From the NCBI GenBank assembly GCA_910589105.1, contig CAJUST010000011.1:64001-98038 (forward strand): a DNA stretch of 34,038 nt. Direction: 5' to 3'. A program made the position numbers and the translations under genes. The stretch's first letter is position 1; the number at the start of each line of letters is the position of its first letter. Shown one piece after another: positions 9,343 through 28,271 of the stretch. This stretch comes from an uncultured Lachnospiraceae bacterium. Lineage in GTDB: Bacteria > Bacillota > Clostridia > Lachnospirales > Lachnospiraceae. Under the pieces are notes generated by a model. That model had not been told where the DNA came from. It made no database searches and saw only the letters and a program-made list of their open reading frames with translations.

Positions 9343-9579
9343 ATGGAGAAGAAAAAAGTTTTCGCATGTTTGGGTTTTGAAGCGGGTCTGGCATTGCTCT
9401 ATCTGTTTTTCTGGAATATTGGCATAAAGCAATTTATTCCAGAACAAGACTTCTTTCTTATAAAAAATGTCTATTTGGCATTGGCGTTTTTGTCCATGAC
9501 TCTTTTGGGTTTCGTAGAACTGTATAGAGATAAAAAGAAAAAAAGTAAGATGGAAGTCCGCTTTTTTGGATGCTGCTGA
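9343..9579 (+). CDS. Small 2-TM membrane protein (hypothetical)
   Basis: The ATG at 9343 sits after AGAGGTGGG. Sequence MEKKKVFACLGFEAGLALLYLFFWNIG... Its stop overlaps the next ATG in an ATGCTGCTGA arrangement, which suggests translational coupling. Confidence 0.4.
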   Translation: MEKKKVFACLGFEAGLALLYLFFWNIGIKQFIPEQDFFLIKNVYLALAFLSMTLLGFVELYRDKKKKSKMEVRFFGCC

Positions 9580-11400
9580 TCATTGGCATAATGTACCAAT
9601 TAGTATTGCCTGCCTTTTCCGCTCCAGATGAAGATACGCATTTTGCAAGCGCATACCGTTTGTCGAATCGAATGATGAAAAAGCAAGAGACGGATGCCAA
9701 GGGATACACTGTCATGCGGGAGGAGGACAGGAAGGGTCAGACATACACTTATGGAGAAAAAGAATTTGCGGGTTATTACCGAAAAATGTTTTCAACTGAA
9801 AAAGTGGATTCCCAGACAGTTTCGTATACAAGGAAAAAAGCAGAGCAAACAGTTCCTTTTCCCGTTTATTTGGCGCCTGCGTGTGGGATTACTATTGCAA
9901 GGCTTTTGCATTGGAATGGCGTATGGACTGCATATTCAGCCAGAATATTCAGTTTGCTGTTTGTTGCGCTGTCAGGGGCTGTTTCTTACAGAATACCGCT
10001 ATACCAATTCTGATGCGGGGCTTCATTTGCGGGAAGCGACTATGGTCTTGCGGACAAATCAGGTGGAAGGAATGTTTTTTTCGCATTTTCAGTTTGCAAT
10101 GGTGTTTGAAATTTTACAGCCTTTTTGCGTGAAGTAACATGGTACAAAGGATATATTGCCGCAGATATTGCGTTTCAATGGCTGGAGATTTTGATTTTTT
10201 TTGTTTGGATAAAGAAGCTTGCGGCAGGTAAATTTTTGACGGCGCTTGTTTGTCTTACTGTGCCTTTCTATTATCTGGCGTATCCGATCCATAGTTTTTA
10301 TTTTTCATTCACTTACTGGGGATTGGGCGTATTGTTATTAATATATATTTTGCTACTTCTGCAAAGGGAGAGGGAGCGTATGGAGCGCCGTTCAATTGTT
10401 TTAGCCCAGCTTATGCTTGCCTGCTTTTCCCTTTGCGTCTGCTATATGTTGTTTGCGCCTGTGGCGTTTGTCTGCGTCTGGCTGGAATTGATGTGGGGCG
10501 GGGAGAAAAAAAGGCGTTTCTCTGCCAAATGTAAAGAGACGCATTTTGTGTTTTTACTGCCGTGCGCATTGGGGATTTATTTCTGCTATTTTGATTTTTT
10601 CTTCGGTCAGGGAACAAGTATTTTAGGAAGCATTCAAAATGAAGGCGGGATTTATTCAAATTTATTTGGAAATTTTATTCTTTTAATGCCAATGGCGGGG
10701 TATGGGTGGATACGGGGGATCAGGAAAAAACAGCCTCAGGCAGTGTGTTTTACCGGATTTTTGGTTTTTGCGGCGTGTATGCTGCTTGGCGCGCTGTATG
10801 GCAGGATTTCAGAATATTATTTTTATAAGAATTATTATCCTCTTTGGGCATTTAGCTGGTATTTTTTCTTTTGCGGGATTTCTATTTTATATAAAAAGAA
10901 CAGGGAATTAGCGGCGGCAAATTTAGGATGCTGTTTGCTCTGCGGCATTTTGGTTTTTAGCGGCATTGATGGGAGGTTTGTTTCTTCCATGGACGAAAGG
11001 AACGGCGTAGACAGGCATTACAGTGAGGCGTTTGAGCTTTATGCGTGGAACCGGATTTACCGATCTTGGGGGGCGGTCAGATCCGTCAAAAGGGCAGCTT
11101 GCGTTGTATGAATGGGTGATGGCAAATTGCCGGACAGACGGACTGGAAACGCCGCTTTTGACGGAAAAAGAAGATTATGCGGACTGTTGTTTTTATGAAG
11201 GCGTGGCCGGCTATGATTTGGGAGAGTTTTACGGGTGGCGGTATCCGAAAGAGGAGATCTTTAAGCGGATAAAAGAAAAAGGGATTTTGTACGCGGTTAT
11301 TTTAAAAAAGAGTGATTTTATAAAAAAGCATAAAGAAGCATTAGAGGAGTATCCGGTATTGTTTGAAAATGAAGCGGGTTATGTGATTGGCTTTGAATAA
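9570..11400 (+). pseudogene. Disrupted GT-C-fold (DUF2142/ArnT/PMT-like) polytopic membrane protein gene
   Basis: The N-terminal piece has a TM helix followed by SAPDEDTHF (the DE motif of GT-C glycosyltransferases) and further TM segments. The same frame continues with plausible protein through two in-frame TGA codons (10011-10013 and 10107-10109). It then switches frame near a G6 run (about 11067) into a soluble C-terminal domain ending at 11400. Confidence 0.45.
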
Positions 11401-21805: not shown

Positions 21806-21837
21806 AAAATAAAAAACGGCAGGGCATAACCCTGCCG
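21806..21837 (-). terminator. Strong rho-independent terminator closing the minus-strand gene array
   Basis: A perfect 8-bp G/C stem (cggcaggg / ccctgccg) with a 5-nt loop. On the minus strand it is followed by TTTTTTATTTT. It starts 10 nt after the stop at 21848. Confidence 0.65.
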
Positions 21838-21847
21838 CCGCTGCCGT

Positions 21848-22987
21848 TTAGGTTTCTGAGGGAGGATTGTTTTGATCCTCTTTTTTGAGTTCGATTCCTG
21901 AAATTAATTTGTTATAGTCTATTTTTTTCTGGCTGCATTGTCTGGAAATTTCATCTGCATGTTTTTGCGCTTCGACGGACTGGTTCTGCGCTTCTGCAAG
22001 CAGGCTGTAATAATTAGATTCTTCTTTGGCATAGGAATCTAAACTGCCTGTGTCGCTTACGCTTTTTAGCGTAAATAAGCAGGAAAGCTCTGCCGCATCG
22101 GCAGGTTCCGTTTGGGCAGGTTTTGAAGCGAGCGATTTTACAGCGTTTGGAATTTGGGTCTGGAAAGTGTTCCAGTATGTATTTAACTGGTCAAGGTTTG
22201 CCTGTAGTTGTTCCGCTTCTTCTGTTTCATTTTTGTTGATAAGTTCCTGAAGTTTTAACTGGTATTGGTTTTGCTGCTGGCTGCCAATCCGTTTAAACTG
22301 CTGTAATTGTTCATTTAATGCTTTTTCGGCGGCGGACTGTTGGGTTTCTAAAAGCAGGATTTCCTGATTCAACGATTTGATTCTTTCGCTTCTGTCTTTT
22401 CGTTCTTCCGGCAGTTCCTGTCCGTTTGCATCTTTTATTTTCGAATCAATAAGAGCTGGGGATACGGAAGCCGCCATCATATCAAGGACTCTGGCAAGGC
22501 CTTCCGGCGTCCCATGGTTGGTCGCCCGCACATCGACGTGGTATTTGGCGGAATTGTCCGTACTTCTAGTGTTGGAGCTATGGGAGCTGACGCTTCCGCT
22601 GATATTGACTTTTGCAATTCCAAGATTAATAGAGCCGGAAGCAGCCGCGCTTAAATCGGTTGCTTTTTCACTTTTTTCGCTTTCCTTGACTTCCATATCA
22701 AATAAGATATTCACTTCATCGACCTGAAGGTTTGGAATTGGGACAATTGCAAGCATTGGCACGTCGATTTTCATTTCGTCTTGATTTGTGGTGCCGTCTT
22801 CGTTATAAGATTTTTTCTCAAATTGGAACGAGGCTTTTCGTGTATTCCCTTTTTCGTCAAAGCCTACTTTATTGATAAATGACGCTGTGCTGTCTGCAAG
22901 CTGCATACTTGCATCTGCAGCCGCGCGTAAAGGCCCGCCGATAAGGTTTCCCATATCTAGGCCTGAAAACTGATCTCCGATCGCCAT
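21848..22987 (-). CDS. Hypothetical protein, module paralog 2: N-terminal alpha/beta domain (possibly DUF2589-like), Ser/Thr-rich linker and a long Q/E/K-rich coiled coil
   Basis: The ATG giving MAIGDQFSGLDMGN... sits 8 nt after AAGGAGG (the track start is 21 nt further upstream). KIDVPMLAIVPIPNLQVDEVNILFDMEV is shared with the paralog at 25083-25943. Confidence 0.6.
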   Translation of the reverse strand: MAIGDQFSGLDMGNLIGGPLRAAADASMQLADSTASFINKVGFDEKGNTRKASFQFEKKSYNEDGTTNQDEMKIDVPMLAIVPIPNLQVDEVNILFDMEVKESEKSEKATDLSAAASGSINLGIAKVNISGSVSSHSSNTRSTDNSAKYHVDVRATNHGTPEGLARVLDMMAASVSPALIDSKIKDANGQELPEERKDRSERIKSLNQEILLLETQQSAAEKALNEQLQQFKRIGSQQQNQYQLKLQELINKNETEEAEQLQANLDQLNTYWNTFQTQIPNAVKSLASKPAQTEPADAAELSCLFTLKSVSDTGSLDSYAKEESNYYSLLAEAQNQSVEAQKHADEISRQCSQKKIDYNKLISGIELKKEDQNNPPSET

Positions 22988-23000
22988 AAGCGTTACCTCC

Positions 23001-24716
23001 TTATTCATTTACTGGTAAAAATGTTTCGATTAGTTCATCTGCTGAAAATTCTGCTAAATAATGAATGGTATTTTTGAAAATTTCACATATCGCGCCAGTT
23101 TCCTGATACAGATCTGTTTGGGCAAAAGCCATTCCGTTTATCAGTACATTCGAGAGATTTCCTGTAGAAAGGTCTAGTTGGATTAGAGGAATATCTCCTT
23201 GCTGGAAACTGTGATGAAGGGCTTCTTTTAACACATTTTCCTGTATATTTTGTATAAAGAACGTTGTTTTTAGATTTTCCTGAATGAGATTGCAGTAGTC
23301 ATCAGCAATCCTATCTTTATCTTCGTAATCCACATAAATTGAAAGCGCCCGCGCAAGTTCTGAAGTCCGGACAGGAACTAGACGCAGGAGAGGATTTTGC
23401 CGGATTAAAGAAGTCAAAAAATCAGAGAGTTCTTCAATGTGTTCCATACAATACTGGCTTGCAGTGAAAAAACCATTTGTAAAATCTGGATAAAAAAATT
23501 GAACATTATCATAACAAGTTCCATCTTTGCCGTCAAATGTGAAATATGATACGGCGTCGTCCCCAAAAGCGTTCTGACGTGAACAAAGACTGTCCCGAAT
23601 CATTGTGGCATTTAGGCTGGCAGAAGTGATGACGTTTATCTGAAAGGCGCATTCGGCATCGAGGACGATGGGGCCGTTTTCTGTGGGCATGATATTGTCC
23701 TGATGAAGATCGGTTACGCCTGCAAGTTTTGCCGCATAGGCTAAGACCCCCATTTTTTTGTAGTAACTGTGTAATTCCGTTTCCGTAAAATCCGGCTTTT
23801 TCGTGACAAGTTCTTCCATTCCGTAGTTTGCATTGTCAAAAATAACCATACACGGCAGATGGCATTCATCGGGAAGCCGTTCGTTTAAATAGGTGATGAA
23901 GCTGTTTGGCCCTGTAAATAAATAATCCGCTTTCATATTCCGCGGCTTATATGCCCATTGGCTGGAATTTCGTTCCGCAAACAGTACCTGTCTGCCAAGC
24001 ATATGTGGGTCAGATCCGGAAACGCGGATATCATATCCTTCTAAATCAACGCTCACAGCGCCTAATAGGAAGTTTACGGTATTTTCAAAACGTGTATGTA
24101 CAAGCGCATAACGGGTTTCAGACGGTTCTTCCGCATATAGATTTATGCTGACGTCCATAATGGCGGAGGCATATAAATCAGAGAGCTTTTGCGGAGAGTT
24201 TAAAAGCGGCCGGATCATATGCGTTTGTCCGATGTACTTTTGGATAAGCGGAAGGGGATTTACTTCCATAATGTCCCAAAATGACAATTCGGCTTCCGCA
24301 AATGGAGCAATTCCCTCATTTATTCTAACGGGAACTGCCATTTGATTTAAAATAGGAAGCAGTTCCATAAACTGATGAAACAGTTCACCGGAATGTATGG
24401 CTTCCATACAGCAGATAACGCCGGAGCAGGACTGTGGTTCGGAAAGGGTGGATTCCCTTAGTTCTGCAAGTTCATCTGAAATGTCCATATTTAACCGTTC
24501 GGAAAGCGAAGCTGCCGCCTGATCAAACGAATCTTCTGTATTCTGAGAAGCTGTAATCATCGCATCTCCTTTCTGGGTTTTGGCATTTTTCAGTTTCATT
24601 TTTTGGTCTGGCAAAAATACGCTGTATTGCGCTTCGTCTGCCAATATAGGGCGGTAGTCTGCCAGATAATAATAATATATGGGAAGCTTTTCTCCATTAT
24701 GTGTTTGTACCGTCAT
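23001..24716 (-). CDS. Stand-alone LanM-type dehydratase/kinase-fold protein (DUF4135-like); no LanC cyclase domain
   Basis: GVTDLHQDNIMPTENGPIVLDAECAF matches the DLHxEN...D catalytic-loop signature of class II lanthipeptide synthetase dehydratase domains. The start was reassigned to MTVQTHNGEKL..., 10 nt after GGAGG (the track start at 24836 has no RBS). Confidence 0.65.
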   Translation of the reverse strand: MTVQTHNGEKLPIYYYYLADYRPILADEAQYSVFLPDQKMKLKNAKTQKGDAMITASQNTEDSFDQAAASLSERLNMDISDELAELRESTLSEPQSCSGVICCMEAIHSGELFHQFMELLPILNQMAVPVRINEGIAPFAEAELSFWDIMEVNPLPLIQKYIGQTHMIRPLLNSPQKLSDLYASAIMDVSINLYAEEPSETRYALVHTRFENTVNFLLGAVSVDLEGYDIRVSGSDPHMLGRQVLFAERNSSQWAYKPRNMKADYLFTGPNSFITYLNERLPDECHLPCMVIFDNANYGMEELVTKKPDFTETELHSYYKKMGVLAYAAKLAGVTDLHQDNIMPTENGPIVLDAECAFQINVITSASLNATMIRDSLCSRQNAFGDDAVSYFTFDGKDGTCYDNVQFFYPDFTNGFFTASQYCMEHIEELSDFLTSLIRQNPLLRLVPVRTSELARALSIYVDYEDKDRIADDYCNLIQENLKTTFFIQNIQENVLKEALHHSFQQGDIPLIQLDLSTGNLSNVLINGMAFAQTDLYQETGAICEIFKNTIHYLAEFSADELIETFLPVNE

Positions 24717-24820
24717 TTTTTTTAAACCTCCGTTTGACATAAAATGTGTTTTTAATCCCATGAAATAGGAGTGCATAAGGTGTAAATTCAGCCATTTTTT
24801 CAAAGTATCCATTTTAAAGC

Positions 24821-25093
24821 CTACAATTCTAACCATATCGGTTTTCGGGGAAAGCCGATATGGTAGGTGGTCTGCTCCATTGTCAGTTCATGTTCCCCGA
24901 TGGCGTACCTGCCAATAGAAATATCCTTGCCGATAATGACCCCTTTTGGGCTTTCGTTTAGACATCGGTTTAACAAGGCCGCCTGCTGTTGTTTGGATTC
25001 CTCAGAAAGCGGGTGGTTCGGGTTTATGCTGCCAAGTGTAATTGTTTTAATAAACCTTATATCTTCATAATGTGTTTTGCAGTCAGGATTCAT
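24821..25093 (-). CDS. Small hypothetical protein (90 aa)
   Basis: The ATG sits 9 nt after GGAGG. Sequence MNPDCKTHYEDIRF...GVIIGKDISIGRYAIGEHELTMEQTTYHIGF. Its start overlaps the end of the upstream paralog by 11 nt. Confidence 0.5.
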   Translation of the reverse strand: MNPDCKTHYEDIRFIKTITLGSINPNHPLSEESKQQQAALLNRCLNESPKGVIIGKDISIGRYAIGEHELTMEQTTYHIGFPRKPIWLEL

Positions 25094-25943
25094 TTGGGGC
25101 GCCTCCTTTTTTGAAGGATTCCACTTTATTTTCTAGCATCGCTTCTTTCACGCTTATGAGTTCTGTTAAGATTGTTTGTCTTAATTCTTCATATTCCTTT
25201 GGGTCATATGGAGCGTTAGAGAACTCTTTAGACAGGCATTCCGGCTCTAGTTCTTCTTGTAAAGATTCTCTTGTTTCCATATATTCTGTGATTTCCTGAT
25301 GCAGTTTATGTAACGCCGCTTCTTGCTGTCTGAGGGAACGTTGGAGTAAAAAATCATCTTTTTCAGAATTTTGCACAATTCCGTCACTTGAAATGGGTGA
25401 AGCATCGATTTGCTTTGCGACAGGATTTGCGTTTAGAATGTCTAAAATCCGCATATAGCCTTCCGTTTCGTCTACTGCTTTTAAATCGATTTTATAGTTG
25501 ACAACGGGCTGTGCGGCGGATTTTTCCCGCTTCAGGGAACTAATTTTTCCGACAGTGAGCGGGGCGTTTTGCTCGTTTTCGGAAATGTGGACTTCCGTTG
25601 AAAATTCTAGCGTGGCATTTTTTATTTTTAAGTTTGGGATTTTTATAATTGATAACAGAGGCACTTCGATTTGGACGCTTTCCATATAGGGTTCATTGTG
25701 TTCTGCCGGGTGTAAGCGTTCATATGCCAGATTTAATTTTTTCAGGTACAGTGTTTCTTCGCCGTTTCTAAGTTTCACTGTGCCCATGCTTTTGATTTCG
25801 TCAAGGATTGCCAGTGAAAGCCTTGCATTTGAGGAGGCAATGGCGTCAATGGGCGCGTAGACTAGGTCATTAAGCGGAAGAAATTGCTTTCCGCTTGTTA
25901 TTTTATCTTGATTGGACTGTTCCTTTTGTTCTGTTTCCTTCAT
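25083..25943 (-). CDS. Hypothetical protein, module paralog 1: same N-terminal domain as 21848-22987, then a shorter coiled coil
   Basis: The ATG giving MKETEQKEQ... sits 7 nt after GGAGG. VQIEVPLLSIIKIPNLKIKNATLEFSTEV and LVYAPIDAIASSNARLSLAILDEI align with the paralog. Confidence 0.6.
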   Translation of the reverse strand: MKETEQKEQSNQDKITSGKQFLPLNDLVYAPIDAIASSNARLSLAILDEIKSMGTVKLRNGEETLYLKKLNLAYERLHPAEHNEPYMESVQIEVPLLSIIKIPNLKIKNATLEFSTEVHISENEQNAPLTVGKISSLKREKSAAQPVVNYKIDLKAVDETEGYMRILDILNANPVAKQIDASPISSDGIVQNSEKDDFLLQRSLRQQEAALHKLHQEITEYMETRESLQEELEPECLSKEFSNAPYDPKEYEELRQTILTELISVKEAMLENKVESFKKGGAPNES

Positions 25944-26052
25944 GGCTTCCCCTCCATATCCATGCTTGTCCATGGTTATTCTTACTTTTAGTATATGCAA
26001 GAGATTTTGGAAATAGAACCAGATTTTAGAAATAATGGTAAAATTTTTATTT

Positions 26053-26841
26053 CTAGTCTTTATTTTTCAGTTCGACTGTATCCGCCCAGAACCTTTTTGG
26101 GATATTTTGAATTTGGAGTTTTGGATTTTTCCGCGCTTCTATGGCAATCGTTTCAAAAAAAGCAAGCCAGAGATTTTTTAAGCGTGTCTCATCTGAGGAT
26201 AAATCCTCTGTAAGTTCCATCGGAAAAGATGCAGCGTCAGTGATGAAATAACCTTTGCCCGACGGGTGGGCGGCTGCAATCCGGCGCGTGGCATCGTAGA
26301 TGATAAAATTCTCTAATGGGAGACGGTCGGTAAAGTGCTCCGCCAAAATTGGCAGGACATAATTTTTGGCATGAATCTGTGAAAATAAAATTCCGGTTTT
26401 TAATTCTGCAAAACGAAGAAATTCTAACAGATGGTGGGCTTCATTCAGCGTCTGGCGGCGCAGTTCAAAGATGCAGGCGATACAGGGTTCGCCTAAATAG
26501 TCTAAGACTTTTGCGCCAGCCGGAAGCGTAAGCGCCATAACGACAGTCTGGTAAATGGCATTTGCTTTATCCATAGCCAATGCGCGGCAGTTTCCGTTTG
26601 CCATTGCGCTGCTGCAAATTGTTTCATAGAAGTGGGCGCCAAGACGTTCTGTCAGTGTACGCGCCACTTTCCGGCTTTTTTCAAAATCGGTTTTTACCGG
26701 AATATATTCTGAAAAAAGCGTAAGCGTTCCGCTTTGGTCGGAGGAAAGCTGTATATTTTTGTGCCCATAGCGGGACGCCCATGCATCATAGATGCCTGTT
26801 AAAATTCCGTCAATACTGTCTTCACATTGAAATACATACAT
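26053..26841 (-). CDS. TIGR03915-family putative DNA metabolism/repair protein (DUF4130-like), the partner of the radical SAM protein
   Basis: About 262 aa. The start MYVFQCEDSIDGILTGIYDAW sits 8 nt after GGAGG. Overlaps the upstream radical SAM gene. Confidence 0.6.
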   Translation of the reverse strand: MYVFQCEDSIDGILTGIYDAWASRYGHKNIQLSSDQSGTLTLFSEYIPVKTDFEKSRKVARTLTERLGAHFYETICSSAMANGNCRALAMDKANAIYQTVVMALTLPAGAKVLDYLGEPCIACIFELRRQTLNEAHHLLEFLRFAELKTGILFSQIHAKNYVLPILAEHFTDRLPLENFIIYDATRRIAAAHPSGKGYFITDAASFPMELTEDLSSDETRLKNLWLAFFETIAIEARKNPKLQIQNIPKRFWADTVELKNKD

Positions 26842-28201
26842 GTTTGCCGCCTCCAAATGAAACGTCGTCGAATAGGGAAAGCTGCCGGTAGCCTTCTTCC
26901 CGCAGTTCTTTTGGGATCTGCGTTTTGTCGGAGAGCAGGTTTCGGCAGATATAGTCCTCGTCCAGCTTGGTCGGATACATCATATGGCCGGAACAGGTGA
27001 TAAAATATAAGGCGCGCTTTAGGACGACGCCGATTTTTTTTAGGTCGCAAAAATCAAGCGTAGAGCCGCGGCGGGCAGCTACAATGCGTTTGGCGGATTT
27101 TGCGCCTATGCCCGGGACGCGGAGTAAGGTTCTATAGTCGGCAGTCTGGATTTCGATTGGAAAAATCTCTAAATGGCGAAGCGCCCAGTCACATTTCGGG
27201 TCCAGATAGACGTTGAAATTCGGGCGGTCTTCGGAGAGAAGCTCGTCTACGGTAAAATGGTAGTAACGTAAAAGCCAATCCGCCTGATAAAGCCTATGTT
27301 CCCGCAGGAGAGGAGGGCCGCCGGAAAGGACGGGAAGGTTTGGATTTTGGCTGACATTGACGAACGCGGAATAAAAGACGCGTTTTAAGTCAAAGTTTTG
27401 ATAAAGACCTTCTGCAACGCTCATAATTTGATAATCGTTTTCAGGCGTGGCTCCGATGATCATCTGTGTGCTTTGTCCGGCCGGCGTAAATCTGGGGGCG
27501 TTGCGGTACAGCATAAGTTCATTTTTGTTCTGGGCAATGCTGTTTTGGATTTGGCGCATGGGTCTTAGGATTGTGCGGCGGGATTTACAGGGCGCAAGCT
27601 CTTTTAAGGCTCTGTGGGTGGGCAATTCTAAATTCACGCTCATGCGGTCTGCAAGAAATCCCGCTTTTTCAATTAAGAGAGGGTCAGCGCCGGGGATTGC
27701 CTTCACATGGATATAGCCTTGAAAGCGGTAGAAGGAACGCAGGCGGCAGACAACTTGGTAGATGAGATCCATGGTGTAATTTGGGGACTTGATAATTCCG
27801 GAACTTAAAAATAACCCTTCAATGTAGTTGCGGCGGTAAAATTCTATAGTAAGCGCGCAGATTTCTTCCGGCGTAAAAGTGGCGCGGGGAATGTCGTTTT
27901 CGCAATTATTCTGGCAGTAGGAGCAGTTAAAAATACATTCATTGGTAAGTAGAATTTTCAGCAGTGAGACACAGCGGCCATCTGCGGAAAAGGAATGGCA
28001 GATCCCGCAGGATTTTGTATTGCCGATTCCCATGCCGTCGCCGCGTCTGTCAACGCCGCTGGAAGTGCATGCAACGTCATATTTTGCGGCGTCTGCCAGA
28101 ATGGTGAGTTTTTCCATAATCGTGGGGGACAGGTGTGTGGCAGGAGAGCTTTTTTGTAAAATGGGGTCTGGGATTAAGGTGATATTGGCAGAGTTCTTCA
28201 T
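26822..28201 (-). CDS. Putative DNA modification/repair radical SAM protein (TIGR03916-like) with a helix-hairpin-helix motif
   Basis: CIFNCSYC radical-SAM cysteine triad, the HhH motif LRVPGIGAKSAKRIV, and the N-terminus KLTILADAAKYDVAC. The start MKNSANITL sits 8 nt after AAGGAG. Confidence 0.75.
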   Translation of the reverse strand: MKNSANITLIPDPILQKSSPATHLSPTIMEKLTILADAAKYDVACTSSGVDRRGDGMGIGNTKSCGICHSFSADGRCVSLLKILLTNECIFNCSYCQNNCENDIPRATFTPEEICALTIEFYRRNYIEGLFLSSGIIKSPNYTMDLIYQVVCRLRSFYRFQGYIHVKAIPGADPLLIEKAGFLADRMSVNLELPTHRALKELAPCKSRRTILRPMRQIQNSIAQNKNELMLYRNAPRFTPAGQSTQMIIGATPENDYQIMSVAEGLYQNFDLKRVFYSAFVNVSQNPNLPVLSGGPPLLREHRLYQADWLLRYYHFTVDELLSEDRPNFNVYLDPKCDWALRHLEIFPIEIQTADYRTLLRVPGIGAKSAKRIVAARRGSTLDFCDLKKIGVVLKRALYFITCSGHMMYPTKLDEDYICRNLLSDKTQIPKELREEGYRQLSLFDDVSFGGGKHVCISM

Positions 28202-28242
28202 AGCAATGCTCCTTACTTGCAAACAAATGTTCTTGATAATGT

Positions 28243-28271
28243 ATTTTATCATGTCATTATTCAAATTGCAA
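28243..28271 (-). promoter_or_regulatory. Minus-strand promoter (TTGCAA-17-TAAAAT) for the radical SAM array
   Basis: TTGCAA corresponds to plus 28266-28271 and TAAAAT to plus 28243-28248, with a 17-bp spacer, about 45 nt upstream of the start. Confidence 0.5.

Follow-up and report, generated by a model that had tools for sequence, protein, structure and literature searches.

In a stretch of 34,038 nucleotides (nt) from an uncultured Lachnospiraceae bacterium (contig CAJUST010000011.1, positions 64,001 to 98,038; hereafter the window), an uninterrupted minus-strand open reading frame (ORF) at 23001..24836 encodes 611 amino acids (aa). Its product is a two-part protein in which a small module of a DUF2589 gene cassette is joined by a linker to a complete LanM-type dehydratase (DUF4135) domain. 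We propose, with a probability of about one half, that it works as a tethered kinase/phospho-lyase for Ser/Thr, with the DUF2589 assembly encoded by the genes around it as its target. The features of the protein are as follows.

23001..24836, minus strand: S83-DUF4135 fusion ORF, 611 aa (603 aa from the probable start at 24812), with adaptor module, linker and DUF4135 domain
24627..24809, minus strand: N-terminal module "S83", residues 10-70, homologous to the free-standing 74-94-aa protein of cassettes that lack DUF4135
24543..24626, minus strand: low-complexity linker of ~25 residues (~residues 71-98), unconserved among the window and the related loci L001 and L004
23001..24542, minus strand: LanM-type dehydratase (DUF4135) domain, residues ~99-611, with the stop codon
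24003..24017, minus strand: P-loop GSDPH, where D276 and H278 correspond to CylM D252 and H254 in HMMER alignments
23946..23948, minus strand: K297 in YKPR, the putative catalytic lysine, aligned with CylM K274
23643..23720, minus strand: putative catalytic loop and metal ligands D376, H378, N381 and D393, corresponding to CylM D347, H349, N352 and D364
23364..23384, minus strand: putative phosphate-elimination pair R485...T491 (RLVPVRT), corresponding to CylM R506...T512 in the profile alignment

The dehydratase domain and its N-terminal module

The initial annotation of this DNA had read the gene as a LanM/CylM-type dehydratase domain with a D-x-H-x-x-N loop and a downstream metal-binding Asp, and this identification was confirmed. 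The motif that it quoted, GVTDLHQDNIMPTENGPIVLDAECAF, lies at residues 373-398 of the ORF (window 23643-23720), and its loop and Asp align with those of CylM. Pfam PF13575 (DUF4135) matched with 90 bits against a cutoff of 29 (E=2.4e-25); neither the family match nor the Asp, His and Asn residues were missing. Beyond what had been described, the P-loop Asp and His, the catalytic Lys and the R...T elimination pair are also in place.

The Pfam match spans residues 269-407 only (profile positions 48-183 of 378). Searches of PDB sequences with the single protein returned LicM2 (6ST5, E=1.8e-8) and CylM (5DZT, E=1.9e-5); with a profile of 21 stand-alone relatives, the CylM match improved to 1.5e-24 and the alignment reached the C-terminal half. 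This profile alignment sets the CylM segment VRNVIRPT on iRiVPlaT, with the same R...T spacing of six residues in both. Both the lipid-kinase-like (PI3K-like) fold and the LanM-specific KA subdomain were found.

The residue set for phosphorylation (K297, D376, H378, N381, D393) and the set for elimination (D276, H278, R485, T491) align with the CylM residues listed above, and all nine were invariant in 21 of the 21 stand-alone relatives. The roles of these residues in CylM were established by mutagenesis: the T512A and R506A mutants accumulate phosphopeptide, and mutating any of the four elimination residues stalls the reaction at that stage (PMC4550811). Judged by these alignments, the LanM-type domain is complete, retaining every residue that CylM needs for Ser/Thr phosphorylation and for β-elimination of the phosphate.

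The N-terminal part of the protein was recognized with a hidden Markov model (HMM), S83, built exclusively from the free-standing small proteins of four related loci (L073, L079, L082, and L083). It matched residues 10-70 of the window ORF (E=1.8e-16), N-terminal residues 2-62 of the orthologue in L001 (E=1.5e-19), and a separate 86-aa ORF of L004 (E=2.4e-21). The module and the DUF4135 domain are thus fused in the window and in L001 and occupy two ORFs (86 aa and 533 aa) in L004. The split was seen in two independent assemblies (L003:4485-6352 and L004:4603-6497). Related cassettes mostly encode the S83-type module as a gene of its own, of ~80 aa, between a 90-aa gene and the gene for the second DUF2589 protein. 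In the AlphaFold model the flexible linker had a predicted local distance difference test score (pLDDT) below 50 (model residues 62-90).

At the middle position of two other loci, a 136-aa protein (L139:4296-4706 and L148:4321-4731) matched both the DUF2589 and the S83 HMMs (E=4e-5 to 4e-4). There is also a resemblance between "ISIPYIALTDYTP" in S83 and the DUF2589 strand "IDVPMLAIVPIP". Possibly, the small module is a DUF2589 paralogue in truncated form.

This module also bears on the start codon. A protein of about 571 aa starting at the ATG at 24716 had been proposed, given a GGAGG 10 nt 5' of that ATG and no Shine-Dalgarno sequence upstream of 24836. Both details are found in the sequence. 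The start at 24716 was nevertheless rejected, because residues 10-70 match free-standing small proteins and 24716 is residue 41, which would cut the conserved module in half; the GGAGG reads as codons for the conserved "NGG" of the module (DG in relatives). In L001, an in-frame stop is followed directly by the ATG of "MERLKQRLNIRL", which aligns with M9 of the window protein ("MDTLKKWLNLHL"), and the database protein P0001, identical to the window protein, is 603 aa long. From these alignments and the module match, the true start is likely 24812 (or 24836, which would overlap the upstream stop by 16 nt, as in L073), and homology of the N-terminal residues gives a length of 603-611 aa.

The absence of a cyclase partner was upheld: no LanC-like domain occurs in the protein or in any of the window ORFs of at least 100 aa scanned against Pfam. 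The description of the domain as stand-alone therefore holds as far as the cyclase is concerned and fails in another respect, as the domain is not bare and carries the adaptor module. Genes of a LANTHIPEPTIDE pathway were absent, with no LanC, LanT, protease or precursor among the scanned ORFs, nor any RiPP recognition element (RRE) protein (RiPP, peptide synthesized on the ribosome and modified after translation) or further tailoring enzyme. No LanA precursor, LanT exporter/protease or immunity gene adjoins the DUF4135 gene, and the window has a single ABC transporter, of sugar type and 20 kb away. Because the cassette genes overlap or abut, there is no room for a hidden peptide gene. The DUF4135 gene lies outside any lanthipeptide pathway.

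An exhaustive HMMER search (E<=0.001), used in place of a word-index profile search that gave only six proteins, found 1334 relatives of the kinase. Among the best 50, none had the length of a LanM (at least 850 aa) and 35 were of 450-700 aa. Cyclase-less DUF4135 proteins dominate the nearest relatives, so a stand-alone domain is not new in itself. In a plasmid collection, the matches listed were annotated LanM-family synthetases with 21-31% identity over at most 47% of the query.

The DUF2589 cassette and its relatives

The fusion gene is the third of four overlapping or abutting minus-strand genes, in the order DUF2589_A / S90 / [S83 + DUF4135] / DUF2589_B, that end at a strong terminator-like hairpin.

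25083..25943, minus strand: DUF2589_A, which opens the cassette, 286 aa counted from ATG 25943 (Pfam DUF2589, E=5.9e-17)
24821..25093, minus strand: "S90", a 90-aa protein outside any Pfam family and the best conserved part of DUF2589 cassettes
21848..22987, minus strand: DUF2589_B, 379 aa counted from ATG 22987, with its coiled coil at the C-terminus (Pfam DUF2589, E=1.4e-40)
21815..21839, minus strand: intrinsic-terminator-like hairpin that closes the cassette, with an 11-bp stem, seven GC pairs and a T-run, 9 nt after the DUF2589_B stop

The ATG of DUF2589_A is preceded by GGAGGGG at 6 nt and is probably the true start; the program-made ORF, which begins at a TTG at 26000, probably starts too far upstream. 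Orthologues occur at the equivalent position in L004, L073-L084, and most of L086-L165. For DUF2589_B, where the program-made ORF starts at 23008, the ATG at 22987 (GGAGG 8 nt upstream) is most likely the start, according to the "MAI..QF" consensus and the 379-aa length of the database protein P0153.

S90, with a GGAGG 8 nt 5' of its ATG, had no match in Pfam, NCBIfam, PADLOC or PHROGs. Across 31 loci its identity is 56-74%, and conservation extends over the full length of the protein (mean column identity of 65% for 32 loci); G21, N24-P25-N26 (GS.NPN), C44, D57, H68, and H78 are invariant. Depending on the locus, it lies between A and B or follows B.

Homologues of DUF2589_B number more than 1140; those listed (120) were 51-100% identical (close orthologues 51-73%), with a coverage of 93-98% except for three fragments. 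An AlphaFold model based on 83 homologues was confident for the coiled coil (201-370) and had a pLDDT below 50 in the DUF2589 domain (87-188). Profile searches of DUF2589_B and S90 against PDB sequences gave nothing significant. For the cassette proteins, PADLOC-DB 2.0 returned no defence match except one of the coiled coil to DruG (E-value 0.03), PHROGs returned no match, and NCBIfam only a sub-threshold LanM. In the literature searched, DUF2589 was mentioned only in passing and PF11655 never.

Among the same 83 homologues, residues 119-142 and 154-162 of DUF2589_B (window 22442-22987, minus strand) show a strict hydrophobic/polar alternation around an invariant HSSNTRSTDNS turn. The alternating positions are L119, A121, A123, I127, L129, I131, V134, I136, and V140, followed by A154, Y156, V158, V160, and A162. 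The Ser/Thr content of region 119-162 is 30%, against 15% overall, and pLDDT was below 50 in this region, the best conserved one. By analogy, the alternation may resemble the insertion hairpins of β-pore-forming toxins, and a strictly amphipathic, Ser/Thr-rich β-hairpin in DUF2589 proteins would point to a device of pore-forming-like, membrane-inserting type.

A scan of metagenome contigs gave 80 loci, and in most of them the recurrent core was A + B + S90, that is, S90 with two DUF2589 paralogues, A of ~290 aa and B of ~380-420 aa with the coiled coil. A DUF4135 domain was present in one of the 80 (L086, the contig of the window itself). The cassettes of four close DUF2589_B orthologues that we looked up (69-73% identical) had the order A / S90 / 74-83-aa gene / B, and none carried DUF4135; one of these orthologues, P0164, is alone indexed in 723 blocks of the assembly collection. 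The DUF4135 enzyme is a rare accessory grafted onto the small middle subunit. The gene order of the window recurs in L001/L002 and L003/L004, where the kinase is 40-43% identical to that of the window.

In the largest branch of related cassettes the order is A / ~100-aa gene / B / S90 / STAS / 354-aa protein / Cache-HAMP-SpoIIE(PP2C)-HATPase_c_2; the STAS gene was confirmed in L098:3536-7464, and the 354-aa protein had a weak, sub-threshold match to GNAT (Acetyltransf_1). A HAMP-SpoIIE gene and an HATPase_c_2 gene lie between A and B in L115:3610-5796, and L127:2564-5920 shows a fusion of the ~100-aa middle gene (E=1.7e-11) with Acyl_transf_3-HAMP-SpoIIE-HATPase_c_2. In repeated cases, therefore, Ser/Thr phospho-enzymes are joined to, or found beside, the middle subunit of the cassette, a parallel with the window in position only.

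A second association of the two families was seen in L008-L015 (Lachnospiraceae, Eubacterium, and Anaerotignum). These type II cassettes have the order DUF2589 / 284 aa / 180 aa / (120 aa or a VWA protein) / DUF4135, with kinases ~25% identical to that of the window; we call the window arrangement type I. L008:2668-11590 and L009:4465-13702 each hold two DUF4135 paralogues and a VWA-domain protein. A TIR-STALD (SLOG) gene adjoins the cassette of L009, hinting at a conflict-system context, and L008 has a gene of similar size at that place (compared by size and position only). The 284-aa, 180-aa, and 120-aa proteins were rejected as homologues of the window proteins, the only match being a weak one of 34 residues between the 284-aa protein and DUF2589 (52% probability).

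Stand-alone DUF4135 genes were also seen in other settings. In Anaerobacterium chartisolvens (L005:2316-11227 and L006:1918-11053) a gene of 635-659 aa comes directly after Baseplate_J, Tail_P2_I, eCIS_core, Cys_rich_CPCC, and an AAA+/WHD ATPase. Loci of this contractile-injection-system-like kind usually carry payload genes directly after the AAA ATPase. In an Agathobaculum metagenome-assembled genome (L012:7975-12318) the order is LytTR regulator / 224-aa protein / stand-alone DUF4135 / phage holin / Amidase_2.

Several DUF2589 cassettes, too, have an Amidase_2 neighbor. In L076 and L078 the amidase gene lies upstream of A; in L125 it lies downstream of B, separated from it by a small gene that has a hydrophobic stretch. 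Genes of a size similar to Amidase_2 occupy the same positions in L126, L128, L130, and L141 (size and position only).

The rest of the window encodes a sugar ABC system, purine genes, acetate kinase, AddB/AddA, HtrA, the ribosomal proteins L13 and S9, a two-component system, and TIGR03916/TIGR03915. No mobile-element marks were found around the locus, whose neighbors are housekeeping genes, and no STAS or PP2C gene lies near the cassette. Beyond the closing hairpin, an 11/12 promoter match precedes rplM. The TIGR03916 radical-SAM/HhH and TIGR03915 (DUF4130) genes, a putative DNA-repair pair at 26053-28264 (minus strand), lie 52 nt upstream of the cassette, and co-transcription with it is possible because no promoter-like site was found between the pair and DUF2589_A. 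Two large ORFs at 11.4-18.5 kb, considered as rpoB/rpoC, proved to be AddB/AddA. A DUF2142-like membrane protein at 9570-11111 (plus strand) appears split over overlapping ORFs in different frames (9570-10013, 9694-10137, and 10125-11111) and may represent a frameshift or a pseudogene.

Proposed function and alternative explanations

It had been suggested that the enzyme might act on a neighboring protein and not on a ribosomal peptide. This suggestion gains strength from the enzyme's fusion to a cassette subunit and from the conserved synteny with DUF2589. In the mechanism that we propose, the N-terminal module would dock the enzyme on the DUF2589_A / S90 / DUF2589_B assembly. The module is homologous to a free-standing cassette subunit and is found both fused and split. 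The enzyme would then phosphorylate, with ATP, a Ser or Thr of one cassette protein, and the phosphorylated residue would probably be dehydrated to dehydroalanine (Dha) or dehydrobutyrine (Dhb). The most attractive candidate target would be the invariant, Ser/Thr-rich and poorly ordered loop of the DUF2589 domains. Such a modification could serve as a covalent on/off or maturation switch of the assembly, parallel to the PP2C / HATPase_c_2 modules, usually with STAS, that occupy or adjoin the same slot of sister cassettes. The link between DUF4135 and DUF2589 is drawn from the gene order shared with L001/L002 and L003/L004 and from the independent type II cassettes.

Several results weigh against this proposal. 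The cassette can dispense with the enzyme, as the survey and the looked-up orthologues show, and the candidate loop is equally conserved where the enzyme is absent. No Ser/Thr column of DUF2589_A, S90 or DUF2589_B distinguishes enzyme-bearing from enzyme-less cassettes. (Two Thr-versus-Glu columns in DUF2589_A that appeared to track the enzyme vanished once L001 was added.) We infer docking by the S83 module from the gene fusion only, and the DUF2589 domain could not be modelled (pLDDT <50). The hhalign comparison gave no support for S83 being homologous to the ~100-aa middle gene found in the STAS-linked branch (E=0.012, probability 3.5%), so the parallel with L127 is one of position. In an unbootstrapped neighbor-joining tree, type I and type II kinases fell in separate clades that are not sisters; the link between the two families is therefore either old or was made twice. 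Other close stand-alone relatives occur in quite different contexts.

We weighed four other explanations, given here from the one with most weight to the one with least. The enzyme might be a regulatory kinase only, phosphorylating a cassette protein reversibly, as the HATPase_c_2 kinases of sister cassettes do, with no elimination of the phosphate. PP2C and HATPase_c_2 genes, usually with STAS, hold the equivalent position in related cassettes, and the Pfam match covers the kinase core only. We nevertheless consider this unlikely, since the four elimination residues are all present and invariant in the 21 relatives, the corresponding CylM mutants stall at the phosphopeptide (PMC4550811), and no phosphatase gene accompanies the window cassette. 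A payload or toxin role, with DUF4135 as a variable domain on a conserved adaptor that irreversibly inactivates outside proteins (of a phage or a competitor) by Ser/Thr dehydration, is improbable as well. It would suit a rare, fast-evolving domain (40-43% identity) on a conserved cassette (69-73%), the payload-like position of the L005/L006 relative after contractile-injection-like genes, the L012 relative that precedes a holin and an amidase, and the L008/L009 cassettes, which include a VWA protein and in L009 adjoin a TIR-SLOG gene. It agrees poorly with the lack of PADLOC or PHROGs matches, with the phage collection, in which no homologue was found, and with the viral contigs, in which there was only one related DUF2589 locus. 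The window locus, moreover, sits among housekeeping genes free of mobile-element marks, and no secretion signal or delivery apparatus is encoded nearby.

We give little credence to a RiPP-type dehydratase resembling LanMD of the hominicin cluster, with the 90-aa protein, the ~80-aa module or a hidden peptide as precursor. Peptides are indeed substrates of single-domain DUF4135 enzymes (PMC12749797), dehydration can be carried out by LanM dehydratase domains excised from the whole protein (PMC10676384), and two small genes adjoin the ORF or lie within it. However, S90 is conserved over its full length (mean column identity 65%), unlike a leader followed by a variable core, and it occurs in dozens of cassettes without the enzyme; the protease, exporter, immunity gene, RRE protein and further tailoring enzymes are lacking, and the gene spacing leaves no place for a hidden peptide. 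Least probable by far is a small-molecule or lipid kinase, in which the PI3K/PI4K-like fold would phosphorylate a lipid, a cell-wall precursor or a metabolite.

Comparison with known systems and significance

By its sequence features, the window protein belongs with the DUF4135 / LanM-dehydratase domains. It is not a LanM, because cyclase, precursor and exporter are all missing and the LanM model TIGR03897 scored 67.9 bits, below its cutoff of 304, with a match confined to positions 139-271 of the 932 in the model. Class II LanM-type synthetases are 15-18% identical to it and differ from it in their C-terminal LanC cyclase; the window protein has instead an unrelated N-terminal adaptor module and DUF2589 partners, with neither LanA, LanT nor immunity genes.

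Cyclase-less or differently partnered DUF4135 enzymes have already been described, and the two compared here both act on peptides in RiPP clusters. LanMD (HomMD), from the hominicin daptide cluster of Staphylococcus hominis, is a single DUF4135 domain with no cyclase and forms Dha/Dhb without rings; its cluster, which is plasmid-borne, further comprises a precursor of 65 aa, an RRE protein, a protease, methyltransferases, and a reductase (PMC12749797). The window protein is like LanMD, by description, in its single domain and lack of a cyclase, whereas its locus has none of those cluster genes and pairs the enzyme with DUF2589 proteins. CcaM / LanMbC, of the dehydrazole (carnazolamide) pathway, is a divergent DUF4135 enzyme outside classical lanthionine formation, with leader-independent substrate recognition. 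Its activity requires a fused, zinc-less class III cyclase domain, and it works with a YcaO on a 30-residue core peptide (PMC10676384); neither a cyclase domain nor a YcaO is present in the window locus.

The partner-switching modules (STAS / PP2C of the SpoIIE-RsbU type / HATPase_c_2 kinases of the SpoIIAB-RsbW type), which occupy or adjoin the same slot in sister cassettes and are fused to the middle gene in L127, are likely an analogous Ser/Thr phospho-control of the assembly. They differ from the window enzyme in their GHKL ATPase fold, unrelated chemistry, and reversible control. Irreversible switching has a precedent in the phosphothreonine lyases OspF/SpvC/HopAI1 and in class III/IV lanthipeptide-synthetase lyase domains, which remove phosphate from Ser/Thr by β-elimination, in folded proteins. 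The OspF/SpvC/HopAI1-type lyases have an unrelated fold and no kinase activity, and depend on host kinases.

To our knowledge, LanM dehydratase domains have been described only in the making of peptide natural products. The full form of our proposal, LanM-type chemistry on a folded multi-protein assembly by an enzyme tethered through a cassette subunit, covalently switching a widespread, pore-like DUF2589 machine of Clostridia, is tentative, and we regard it as doubtful. In other lineages such a device appears to be under partner-switching phospho-signalling.

If the proposal is true, this would be a natural kinase-lyase hard-wired to a protein complex, and the enzymatic installation of dehydroamino acids, or irreversible phospho-elimination, would extend to bacterial proteins; it would also offer a protein-directed dehydratase for protein engineering. 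The locus offers a first way into the function of DUF2589 and its 90-aa partner, a gene set very common in gut Lachnospiraceae, and the recurrent coupling to Ser/Thr phospho-enzymes predicts that the DUF2589 assembly is a regulated device. With a LanM-type dehydratase domain that is real and intact and set in a protein-complex rather than a RiPP context, both the role of the enzyme and the DUF2589 cassette become experimentally approachable.

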